From a virus (taxonomy: Duplodnaviria; Heunggongvirae; Uroviricota; Caudoviricetes), in IMG/VR virus record IMGVR_UViG_641736224_000031: a DNA stretch of 42,289 bases. One strand, given 5' to 3'. The position numbers are program-made. Below, piece by piece: positions 27,001 through 30,000 of the stretch (positions are counted from its first letter, which is position 1; each line of letters starts with the position of its first letter).

Positions 27001-30000
27001 GAGGAACAGAGTTAAAAAGCCGGAAGCGGAATCAAATCACAGGATGACCATCTGCCAGTGGCTGGTCGTAAAAAAAGGCCGCGCCATGCGCAGCCGAAAA
27101 TAAAGGGATAACGATGATAGTTTGAGAAAAACAGAAATAACACTTTTGTGGCAAAGCATGGTGCCGGGTGCCTCCCGGTGAATTCAGTATCAGCACCTGA
27201 ATCCGCGATTACCCCATATTCCTTCTTGCTGATTGCCCCACCGCACAGGGGGATTCACCATGCAGAAGTGTTTTTAATAAACAGCAAACAAAAAAATCAA
27301 GCATTATGCAGGCTGTTTCTTTTTATCACCGGCCACAGCAATACCATAATGCCGCAGACCAGCACCCCATCCGCCAGCACCGACATGATTCTGCTGGTGA
27401 AATCCACCATCACCACCAGAAACAGCAGGAGTGCAGCCACAGTCAGGCGCAGTTTTACCGTCACAGGTAATTCTCCAGACGAAGACCCAGAACACCGGCA
27501 ATCTCTTCCAGCACCTTGCGCTCTTCCGGCTCAATTTCGCCGTCTGCCTCCGCAATGGCCACCGCCACATCCAGCACATCTTCCGCTTCACGCGTATCGT
27601 GTTTCACATCCTCGATCTCACGTAACGCCGCACGACGACCAGTTTTAAAGTTCGTATCCAGCTGACCGATAATGGTTGCGCTAATCGCATTAATTTCTGA
27701 CGTAAACGCGTACAGCGCAGGCTGATTACGCAGTACCTGTTCGATCTTCGCTTTCTAGGAAGCCTCACATTCACCATCTGCACAGGCCACCAGGTATGCG
27801 GCGTTAATCACCACCTGTGCCAGATCGCGTTTTTCAAACTTTTTAATTTCCGTTGCCGCTCTGCGGGCTTTTTTTACCAAAAATACCAAACATCGTGACG
27901 TTCCTTTGGGTGGGTGAGCCAACGCCCGGGAGCGATCTGCCCACAGAGAAAGTCACACTGACCACTCCATAAGCTCCCCCCGAAAGGCTCTGTGGTTGGT
28001 ATGCGCCGGGCGTGGTGCGGATACAAAAAAGGTCCGCAAAAGCGAGCGAGGGAAAATAAGTGTGGTGCGTTGTACTGGGTTCGAACCAGTGACCGATTGC
28101 TTAGAAGGCAATTGCTCTGTCCGGCTGAGCTAAAAACGCAGAATACCGATAATGGACCGCCATCGGAGACTCGAACCCCGCGAAACCAGCTTCGAAGGCT
28201 GGCGTTCTATCCCGATGAGCTAATGGCGGTATGTGATGGTGGCCCTTGCTGGATTTGAACCAGCGGCCTGGCGATTATGAGTCGCTCGCTCTCACCACTG
28301 AGCTAAAGGGCCGGGCGCAGGATAATAACGTTACGAAATCAATGTTGCAAGCATTCAAGAATCACCTGGTTAAAAATTACCCTTGCTTCCTCCACCAGCG
28401 CATTCACCATGTCTATCCGAGATAAGTGGCACAAAAAAACCCGCTTGTGGGCGGGTTTTGTTTGCTTTTGCCATCACGTACAAAATCGGCAAAATATCAG
28501 ATTTGCATGAAATATATGCCTTTCAATCTACTTTTGCAACACTTTGCTTTGAAAATGCCGCCTTTTGTTTTGAACGCGTTCTCATTACAAACAATAAAGC
28601 CTCACTATCCAGTCGGTGAAAAATGTGTTTCATTGCAACCCAGTGACGAGTAAATGTTTTGGACCAGTTTTTAGTTGTCACTCCCACCAGTAATGCCAGC
28701 TCCTTGTATTCATAACCTTCCCCACCAAAAAGTTCTGCTTTTACTGCCTGCGCCGCCAGCCAGATTAATTTTTTCAGGCGTTCCTGCGTTTTCCCTGCAA
28801 TTTTTCTGGTACCGGATTGAGTATTAAATTCATTCCACGCCCACTGTGTTATCGCGATCTGATATTCCCAACAAATACTCCCGCTGTAACACCACAACAA
28901 CCAGGCTTTATGATGTTCTTCAAGAGACAGAACAGCCCGCCGCCACGATGATGTCGAAAACTCAACCGGACTGACCAGAGGAATTGACGTCACCTTCGCC
29001 AGCGATTGCTTTCCCGGGATTGGTGGATTATCCCGCGTTATCATTTTTCCAGTCACTTCATCGCGGTACCGGATTTTTTTTCGCCTGTAACGCCCTGTAT
29101 CGAACATGGCATTCTCCTGCCAGGCTTCAAGCTGACCTTTTGTTGCCCCACTCAAATCGGCGGTAGCGATAATGAGCAGCTCACGCACAAACTGTAAATA
29201 GTGGTTATTCATGCGCACTCCAGTTCTGTGATTTTTATCCCCAGCCGCTCACCAGGAACGAGCTGACCGCGCACAATATTGATTTCATCAAACTGCTCAT
29301 CGTCCATTAGCAACCCCGCATGCGTCAGCGCATCCAGCGGCGCTTTCAGAATATTGTCCAGGTCACGGCGGCGCTTATCCGGTGGCTCGGCAATAATCTT
29401 TATCGCCAGCCTTCCGGACAGGCTTAATTTCAGCCGCTGCTGGCGAACAATAAGCGCCACAGCCCGGCGATAACGCTCACCGGCTTTTGATACAAAATAT
29501 GTGCTGCCACGACGTCGCCAGTAGGTGTTCACCGTCGGCGGGTAAGGTAAAACCAAATCTATGAGCATCAGTCACCTCTTTTACCCGAGCACGCCAGTCG
29601 CAAAGGCGTGATCAAGAAAACGAAAAATTAACTCAATCTGAGAGCCGTACTTTTTCTCAAACTCCAGCGGGTCTGCATGAAGTTCGTTGTGGTGCTCCCG
29701 GCACAACGGTAGCGTGAAAATATCGTGGGCCTTTGTCCCCATTCCCCCCTGACCATGACCAATCAGGTGATGCGGATCGTCAGCAGGCTTACCACAACAC
29801 GCACACGGCTGTGTCTTTACCCAGCGCGTGTATTTCTCATTAACCCAGCGGCAACGTTTAGGCCGCCTCATGAACGATTCAGGAGACTCCGGATCAACGG
29901 CGATACTGACAACCGTTTTTTTCTGTGGTGGATTTTGTTGCTGGTGGACGTGAAGTGGCAGCGCAATATTTTTTGTGCGCTGCTTCAGTATGCTGATGGC

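Follow-up and report, generated by a model that had tools for sequence, protein, structure and literature searches.

A TerB-family pseudogene and an intact DUF3927 gene downstream of the late tRNA cluster of a degenerate lambdoid prophage of Escherichia coli O157:H7

The window, that is, the whole 42,289-nt stretch of viral DNA analysed here, very probably comes from a degenerate lambdoid prophage of E. coli O157:H7 and carries an inactivated tciA/tciB accessory pair in the cargo slot of its late operon. In the first gene, tciA, a homopolymer run has one A too many and the codon of an invariant glutamate is amber; the second, tciB, is intact. Decay of the prophage extends beyond this locus, as annotation gives frameshifted terminase and integrase genes, a truncated capsid gene and an inserted IS1203; the prophage also carries an EspF-repeat effector gene. 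The locus is already annotated, and the observation is correct but ordinary. The window itself, a decaying prophage in which a phage accessory gene that already has a name is annotated as a pseudogene, is of little importance, and it is as a pair common and conserved among phages that TciA and TciB deserve attention.

Layout of the cargo locus and its relation to the stx slot

On the minus strand, the locus runs from Q and tR' through tRNA-Ile2/Arg/Arg, the TerB-family gene, the DUF3927 gene, STnc100 and a terminator to the nanS-p esterase. The initial annotation had proposed the order Q-like gene, tR'-like terminator, three tRNAs, slot and nanS-p, and each element was found on this strand where it had been placed:

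28523-29218, minus strand: late antiterminator Q, the left context of the slot (an ORF; identical genomes annotate it as "bacteriophage antitermination protein Q")
28539-28511, minus strand: pR'-like promoter upstream of the tR'-like hairpin (promoter scan)
28436-28459, minus strand: tR'-like hairpin, with a T-run 3' of the hairpin on the minus strand (hairpin scan)
28063-28312, minus strand: three tRNA genes, CAT (Ile2, ileZ-type), Arg-TCG and Arg-TCT (ARAGORN; Rfam tRNA)
27894-28062, minus strand: 169-nt leader from tRNA-Arg to the tciA start, more than 90% conserved in JLK-2012 and Evi
27461-27893, minus strand: tciA-like TerB-family pseudogene, 433 nt (Pfam TerB, PHROG 632, 2JXU; RefSeq pseudogene)
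27869-27875, minus strand: A7 run in tciA, one A more than the A6 of JLK-2012 (alignments to intact homologues)
27755-27757, minus strand: in-frame TAG in tciA in place of GAG (Glu46) (alignments to intact homologues)
27297-27464, minus strand: intact tciB-like DUF3927 gene, 55 aa (Pfam DUF3927, PHROG 1470, RefSeq WP_000216649.1)
27120-27292, minus strand: STnc100-family sRNA element, conserved as the right-hand border of the slot (Rfam RF02076)
27077-27095, minus strand: intrinsic terminator-like hairpin with T7 ahead of nanS-p (phage 434 has an annotated terminator at the homologous site)
25133-26983, minus strand: nanS-p-type SASA carbohydrate esterase, the right context of the slot (ORF and annotation)
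23838-25051, plus strand: IS1203 (IS3 family) between the esterase and the holin (annotation)

The STnc100 element starts 5 nt past the end of tciB and scored 100.8 bits against RF02076 (Rfam gathering score 47; E = 2.4e-22). A 40-aa ORF at 27159-27037 matched no Pfam family. At the tR'-like hairpin there were also weak isrK/isrJ-like Rfam matches, below the gathering score. IS1203 is missing at the otherwise identical locus of strain PV15-279.

Both borders of the slot recur around the Shiga toxin genes. The three tRNA genes are 93-95% identical to the ileZ-argN-argO genes of Stx2 phages (95% for the Stx2a phage WGPS6), and in WGPS6 Q is followed by ileZ-argN-argO and then by stx2A, 93 nt past argO. 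At the other end, STnc100 starts 79 nt after stxB in the Stx1 phage 75/02, and it follows tciB in four other loci too. This agrees with the earlier proposal that the locus lies where Stx phages hold stx. With the tRNA cluster and STnc100 as its borders, the tciA/tciB slot is the slot of stxAB, which likewise has Q, tR' and ileZ-argN-argO ahead of it and STnc100/EcOnc27 with the nanS-p esterase behind it (PMC12711010). The cargoes themselves are unrelated: stxAB encodes an AB5 toxin, whereas the window has a cytoplasmic TerB-fold protein with a membrane peptide, and in inactivated form. The interval from the tRNAs to STnc100 in lambdoid late operons is thus a cargo slot with exchangeable contents, stxAB in one set of phages and tciAB in another.

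The same slot (Q, usually tRNAs, tciA, tciB, STnc100, esterase and lysis genes) is found in the lambdoid phages JLK-2012, Evi and PPyecE_EH1910, with 88-93% DNA identity to the window, 94-96% identity in TciA and the same 4-nt overlap of the two genes. In all three, tciA is intact and encodes 143 aa, in contrast to the window copy with its A7 run and TAG codon. Their tRNAs differ from the window set: those of JLK-2012 are annotated as Asn/Thr/Gly (Asn and Gly only with ARAGORN), Evi has Met-CAT/Lys/Arg, and PPyecE_EH1910 has no tRNAs.

Transcription of stxAB is Q-dependent and late, and the same is presumed for tciAB. With no promoter of their own, tciA and tciB would, like stx2, be read late in lytic growth by Q-antiterminated transcription that starts at pR'. 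A moron promoter was sought in the 169-nt leader and none was found, a consensus scan, itself crude, giving no sigma-70-like promoter on the coding strand; a weak promoter active in the lysogen might nevertheless lie within this leader. A structured leader RNA was also considered and rejected, the fold being no better than that of shuffled sequences (z = 0.2).

Identity of the pair and the lesions in tciA

The initial annotation had described a TerB-fold gene with a good Shine-Dalgarno sequence. The ORF was confirmed, from an ATG at 27893 to a TGA at 27461, with AGGA 8 nt upstream of the ATG, and the TerB likeness held in profile searches. The repaired product scored 45.7 bits against Pfam TerB (PF05099; cutoff 24.4, E = 9.5e-12), above the gathering score, and JLK-2012 TciA scored 60.2 bits. 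The window gene matched PHROG 632 (E = 2.1e-68), and TciA aligned to the solved TerB structure 2JXU over residues 15-137, near full length (E = 4e-07). Its fold is all-helical and TerB-like. The protein does not qualify as a DjlA co-chaperone, as it scored 29.9 bits against PRK09430 (cutoff 162) and only the TerB-like part matches (NCBIfam).

The 55-aa hydrophobic ORF that had been reported after the TerB gene was likewise found, at 27464-27297. It matches Pfam DUF3927 (1.7e-16) and PHROG 1470 (1.8e-29), and its hydropathy profile has two hydrophobic segments, at about residues 5-21 and 28-47. The GTG start of tciB overlaps the TGA of tciA (GTGA, 4 nt) and has its own GGAG 8 nt upstream. A TerB gene is therefore directly followed by an overlapping DUF3927 gene, and by these matches the pair is assigned to the tciA/tciB module as named in phage P1 (PHROG 632/1470). 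A search for intact homologues and their partners gave the same pairing, the intact 143-aa TciA standing with a DUF3927 protein.

Two lesions separate the window copy from these homologues. Intact tciA genes are 432 nt long, encode 143 aa and have an A-run of A6 or AAAGAAAA; the window copy is 433 nt long with A7 (27875-27869), and from the ATG its frame closes at a TAA after 16 codons. The second lesion, an in-frame TAG that had also been proposed before, was located at codon 46, where every intact homologue aligned has GAG. Glu46 is the glutamate of the first DGxxxxxE motif and was invariant in both sets of diverse homologues compared (13 and 22). Hence the first of the two D-G-x5-E motifs lacks its Glu in the window copy, and the second acidic motif, D117-G118...E124, is present.

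RefSeq/PGAP lists the gene as a pseudogene and flags only an "internal stop". Its start is a TTG at 27889, in the shifted frame and 4 nt downstream of the ATG, and A7 leaves the ORF so annotated unbroken; where A7 occurs without the TAG, annotation gives intact proteins of 142-144 aa that begin at this TTG (P0005, P0007, P0013, P0050). The frameshift first ascribed to the A7 run thus stands relative to the ATG and is bypassed from the TTG, and the A7 is less decisive because this start keeps the frame open. With either start the reading frame is interrupted, since the TAG remains. We conclude that the TAG is the real knockout of the window tciA. With the extra A in the homopolymer and the amber codon at an invariant Glu, an N-terminal fragment of 45 residues is the most that can be made.

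The same broken allele is present in a second prophage of strain PV15-279, and a third prophage of that strain has an intact copy of 145 aa. The two broken copies differ by no synonymous and two non-synonymous changes. Among intact alleles, dN/dS is 0.01-0.06 at dS up to 0.69, and the tciA family as a whole is, by these ratios, under strong purifying selection. Inactivation of tciA looks recent. In the window, the function of tciAB would be lost; persistence of the broken allele would be due to the defective state of the prophage and to the intact copies that co-resident prophages can carry.

Possibly, only tciA has been lost, and the late transcript still yields TciB with a function of its own, which would make the locus a smaller cargo that nevertheless works; we regard this as doubtful. 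It is the sole non-trivial reading left for the window itself. It is favoured by the state of tciB, which has stayed intact next to both broken tciA genes and in all copies examined, and by the GGAG 8 nt before its GTG. Moreover, the DUF3927 gene of phage 434 sits behind an unrelated 247-aa membrane protein and not behind TerB, so DUF3927 is not strictly dependent on TerB (the extra membrane proteins of phage 434 matched no Pfam family). Against this, the GTGA overlap suggests coupling to tciA, whose translation now stops about 290 nt upstream, a gene of 55 codons gives no power to detect selection, and the inactivation looks recent. Among the papers listed in a literature search, none gave a function for DUF3927, and those retrieved for tciA/tciB mostly concerned Trypanosoma genotypes and were unrelated.

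The module in other phages and its possible role

The cargo had been called unusual, a view that the distribution of the pair does not support, because the pair is already named in P1, has its own PHROG families and is common: 132 phage records contain it, as do 741 of the 5,426 complete E. coli genomes (about 14%), with a median of three places in each. TerB has been listed as a conserved neighbour gene in such prophages (2026 preprint). The pairing is kept in lambdoid phages, in P1 and P7, in N4-like phages and in a jumbo phage, and it recurs beside tRNA genes. P1 encodes a TerB-like protein, about 141 aa long and 40.6% identical to that of the window, and directly after it a DUF3927 protein (51%); as in the window, the genes overlap or abut and adjoin tRNA genes. 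P1 differs in having a third gene, tciC, for a 35-aa hydrophobic peptide; no tciC-like ORF was found after tciB in the window, where STnc100 occupies that space. Also, the P1 operon lies in the C1-controlled ban region, whereas the window pair lies in a Q-dependent late operon. The three P1 genes are non-essential and were named by homology only (PMC10695390).

The two genes are probably coupled in translation and are inherited together in phages that are not related, and a partnership of their products is proposed for this reason. Where both genes are intact, TciA, an acidic protein of TerB fold, would probably bind metal through its two DGxxxxxE motifs and work at the inner membrane with TciB as a membrane hairpin. 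Gene order, coupling and hydropathy are consistent with a TciA-TciB membrane complex. The only natural fusion, from draft genomes (P0011), was considered as evidence of interaction and set aside, as it looks like an indel artefact. The likeliest role of the intact pair would be a membrane-directed accessory function in infection, such as envelope sensing or stabilising, or competitor exclusion.

It is improbable that the pair confers, or formerly conferred, tellurite resistance, or that it belongs or once belonged to a TerB anti-phage defence system such as Shango, Bunzi or Dionysus; for tciAB, a literal role in tellurite resistance is itself unlikely. The annotation "tellurite resistance TerB family protein" points this way, and TerB of terZABCDEF (2JXU) shares with TciA its domain family, size, all-helical fold and two acidic DGxxxxxE motifs. 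However, identity between the two is low, the window partner is a 55-aa DUF3927 protein and not TerC, and the 61 features annotated in the identical 42-kb region include none of terZ, A, C, D, E or F. Nor does the P1 name speak for resistance, resting as it does on homology. As to defence, TerB domains occur in membrane-linked defence systems (PMC10952713); they are described as amphitropic, and TerB has been proposed to watch the membrane (10.1101/2025.09.30.679545). Shango SngA, Bunzi BnzA and Dionysus DinB each place a TerB-like protein beside a membrane protein, as does tciAB, but tciAB has no helicase, ATPase or pore-forming partner and is phage-borne, in virulent phages included (Dionysus, being newer than the PADLOC copy, was compared by architecture only). 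PADLOC returned TciA only as a PDC-S48 candidate (13.7 bits, E = 0.006) and no match for TciB, and the neighbours are tRNAs and an esterase, with no defence partner genes in the window; membership of a known defence system was rejected. Members of the family are also encoded by N4-like and jumbo phages that are strictly virulent, and therefore a phage function fits better than host defence.

More broadly, and tentatively, TciAB could be a two-component phage membrane module that acts in phage-phage or phage-host conflict, where it may serve, for example, in superinfection exclusion, envelope surveillance or lysis timing.

Spread of the broken allele

A functional TciA could in principle still be made if the TTG at 27889 bypassed the A7 run and the amber codon were read through or suppressed, and this we consider very improbable. 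The shifted frame is open from upstream, and the product from the TTG would begin MVFLVKK..., hydrophobic and basic to the same degree as MFGIFGKK.... Among the A7 alleles annotated as intact, P0050 alone is a cluster of 847 member sequences, and variants with TGG (Trp) in place of the TAG are known in P0004 and P0012. The TTG, however, lies as far as 12 nt from the AGGA, whereas the ATG with which it competes is well spaced, and read-through or Trp at an invariant Glu would still hit the conserved motif. A suppressor among the three phage tRNAs, the only ones in the window, was ruled out, as they decode Ile2, Arg and Arg. The two TAG copies, moreover, differ at non-synonymous positions only.

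The 1,079-bp slot is at least 99% identical in 486 complete E. coli records and 100% identical in all O157:H7 genomes among the matches listed. Counted as exact 71-mers at the best place per record only, and hence not as haplotypes, the TAG version was found in 521 records and the GAG version in 40, and the A7 version in 554 and the A6 version in 8. That both lesions are sequencing or assembly errors in a truly intact gene is scarcely credible: homopolymer runs are error-prone and the lesions are only 112 nt apart, but such identity over hundreds of genomes, in assemblies from many laboratories, with these 71-mer counts and an internal stop annotated by RefSeq, rules error out and favours the real decay that had been suspected at the outset.

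Both lesions are old alleles, common to hundreds of genomes and to more than one prophage per genome. Their frequency (521 and 554 records) is largely a product of how heavily O157:H7 has been sampled, and selection for loss could still lie hidden in it. Among pathogenic E. coli, the null allele with A7 and TAG has spread over several prophages and over several serotypes, and, if TciAB does act in conflict, this spread could represent a tolerated or selected loss and not plain drift. Broken alleles move between co-resident prophages.

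The tRNA-to-esterase slot

The genes concerned are all encoded on the minus strand:

29218-28523 (-), late antiterminator Q (ORF)
28539-28511 (-), pR'-like promoter (promoter scan)
28459-28436 (-), tR'-like hairpin (hairpin scan)
28312-28063 (-), three tRNA genes, anticodons CAT, TCG and TCT (Ile2/Arg/Arg; tRNA search)
between the tRNA genes and the TerB-like frame (-), 169-nt leader
ATG 27893 to TGA 27461 (-), TerB-like reading frame, tciA
27464-27297 (-), 55-codon hydrophobic ORF, tciB, whose own GTG overlaps the tciA TGA
27292-27120 (-), STnc100, full-length Rfam match (RF02076; 100.8 bits, gathering score 47)
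27095-27077 (-), terminator-like hairpin with a T7 tail
26983-25133 (-), SASA/nanS-p esterase, 616 aa

The gene order and lesions described in the initial annotation were confirmed in the sequence, and its equation of this interval with the stx slot is borne out by two Stx phages. In the Stx2a phage WGPS6, Q and ileZ-argN-argO (95% identical to the window tRNAs) precede stx2A, which lies 93 nt past argO; in the Stx1 phage 75/02, STnc100 begins 79 nt after stxB, ahead of the esterase. A full-length STnc100 directly follows the cargo in every locus examined, be it tciB in the window or stxB in 75/02 (4485-4683), and the gap between tciB and its start is 5-66 nt in the window, JLK-2012 (4814-4986), Evi and PPyecE (L003 4776-4962 and L004 4763-4953) and copy 3 of strain PV15-279 (L010 6607-6779). 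STnc100/EcOnc27 was also placed just downstream of stx2B in a 2025 paper (PMC12711010). The slot has defined borders: on the left the tRNA cluster, on the right STnc100, which marks where the exchangeable segment ends. The AgvB anti-sRNA is found beside STnc100, on the opposite strand, in 75/02 and PPyecE. Weak isrK/isrJ-like Rfam matches (22.7 and 24.5 bits, below the gathering score) in the short pR'-tR' transcript region (28434-28507, minus strand) are reminiscent of the short late RNAs with a regulatory role that have been described in Gifsy and Stx phages.

E. coli O157:H7 genomes match the window at 100% identity and, when mapped onto strain FRIK944, the window corresponds to one whole lambdoid prophage. 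This prophage is degenerate:

123-989, EspF-repeat effector gene (TccP/EspFU-like)
13553-13816, major capsid gene, truncated
17532-19461, large terminase gene, frameshifted
23838-25051, IS1203, between esterase and holin
41267-42289, integrase gene, frameshifted

Lesions in tciA and spread of the broken allele

For comparison, the region was aligned with the intact pairs (JLK-2012, Evi and PPyecE_EH1910) and further O157 copies. At 27875-27869 the window reads GGTAAAAAAAGCC, an A7 tract, against A6 in JLK-2012, and the codon at 27757-27755 is TAG instead of the GAG of every intact copy. The frame opened by ATG 27893 reaches a stop after 16 codons. With one A deleted and GAG put in place of TAG, the frame encodes a 143-aa protein, 94-96% identical to intact phage proteins. 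It matched Pfam TerB at 45.7 bits (cutoff 24.4), so that the similarity passes a profile search, as well as PHROG 632 (E 2.1e-68) and the TerB structure 2JXU (E 4e-07, residues 15-137); these matches place the repaired protein in the TerB family. The amber codon replaces Glu46, which closes the first of two D-G-x5-E motifs and does not vary across sets of 13 and 22 diverse homologues.

The frameshift carries less weight than the initial annotation gave it, and less than the stop codon. RefSeq starts tciA at TTG 27889, 4 nt past the ATG and in the A7-created frame, and PGAP/RefSeq flags only an internal stop. Proteins starting MVFLVKKARRAATEIKK are annotated as intact (142-144 aa) in many genomes (P0005, P0007, P0013 and P0050, the last a cluster of 847 member sequences). 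Thus, A7 by itself is no proof of inactivation; TAG is. Expression from the TTG is probably poor, as judged from its distance of 12 nt from AGGA and the competing, well-placed ATG. With MVFLVKK as its N-terminus in place of MFGIFGKK, the protein still starts hydrophobic and then turns basic. Rare variants (P0004, P0012) carry TGG (Trp) at the amber position, apparently derived from the amber allele in a single step. In draft O157:H7 genomes a 197-aa TciA-TciB fusion (P0011) is annotated; it probably reflects an artefactual indel close to the GTGA overlap.

Both lesions are real, as the initial annotation had favored over error. Every listed O157:H7 genome carries the 1,079-bp slot at 100% identity, and 486 records carry it at 99% or more. 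The exact TAG-centred 71-mer occurs in 521 records against 40 for GAG, and the A7 71-mer in 554 against 8 for A6 in the same 70-nt context; since only one place per record, the best, and only exact flanks were counted, these are not haplotype frequencies, and they are inflated by heavy O157:H7 sampling. Both alleles are also found in strains of O55:H7, O103 and O111 and in isolates from dogs, pigs and seawater. The O157:H7 strain PV15-279 has three tciAB copies in three prophages (L005 4295-4887 and L010 6001-6602 among them): two different prophages share the identical A7 and TAG allele, and the third has an intact 145-aa tciA carrying 6 extra nt right behind codon 47, a pattern suggesting that co-resident prophages exchange alleles.

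Distribution, constraint and possible role of TciAB

The small protein belongs to DUF3927 (E 1.7e-16; PHROG 1470, "TciB-like"), is 51% identical to P1 TciB and has two hydrophobic segments by hydropathy (around residues 5-21 and 28-47). The names, given by homology, come from the tciA-tciB-tciC operon of P1, non-essential in a CRISPRi screen (PMC10695390); unlike P1, the window has no tciC-like ORF.

TciA homologues were found in 132 phage records, spanning lambdoid phages, P1/P7/D6, N4-like Salmonella, Escherichia and Vibrio phages, and jumbo Erwinia and Salmonella phages. Where tblastn detects TciB, it begins 60-70 nt past the end of the TciA match. A tciA 71-mer matched 741 of 5,426 complete E. 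coli genomes (median, 3 places per genome), and in pathogenic E. coli a 2026 preprint counts TerB (PF05099) as one of the conserved genes neighbouring prophage sRNAs. Given this distribution the cargo is not unusual, contrary to the initial interpretation, which stood for the slot and the decay. The feature already carries an annotation and falls within a named family, so its interest is low.

Among intact alleles, dN/dS is 0.01-0.06 (dS up to 0.69), so the tciA family is under constraint and functional. Between the two broken copies there are 2 non-synonymous and 0 synonymous changes; this fits recently relaxed constraint, but such numbers are too small for a test.

In phage 434, the DUF3927 gene instead follows an unrelated 247-aa membrane protein without a Pfam family and precedes a 62-aa membrane protein (L020 1312-2544, between a Q82-like gene and the esterase), so DUF3927 can pair with a non-TerB partner.

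Gene identity, lesions, gene coupling, slot and family constraint are demonstrated; going beyond these, we infer that tciAB would be transcribed from pR' under Q control; neither a promoter nor a special structure was found in the tciA leader. Intact TciA would probably be an acidic, putatively metal-binding, membrane-associating TerB-fold protein, and intact TciB a putative two-helix membrane partner, probably working with it during lytic growth. In the window, tciA is dead, whereas tciB may still be translated, using a GGAG of its own. Amphitropic behaviour has been described for TerB domains, which are also part of membrane-linked defence systems; the pair matches none of those with which it was compared. 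Its presence also in virulent phages points to a function on the phage side.

Pairs of tciA and tciB adjoin tRNA genes in unrelated phages:

window 28063-28312, Ile2/Arg/Arg
JLK-2012 (L002) 3754-3987, annotated Asn/Thr/Gly
P1 (L007) 1616-1769 and 3201-3276, Asn/Thr upstream, Ile2 downstream
jumbo phage pSal-SNUABM-04 (L009) 1184-1648, Trp/Cys

This adjacency is not universal, as Fostie, PPyecE and PV15-279 copy 2 have no tRNA genes there; it could reflect a shared mobile module or simply a common accessory region.
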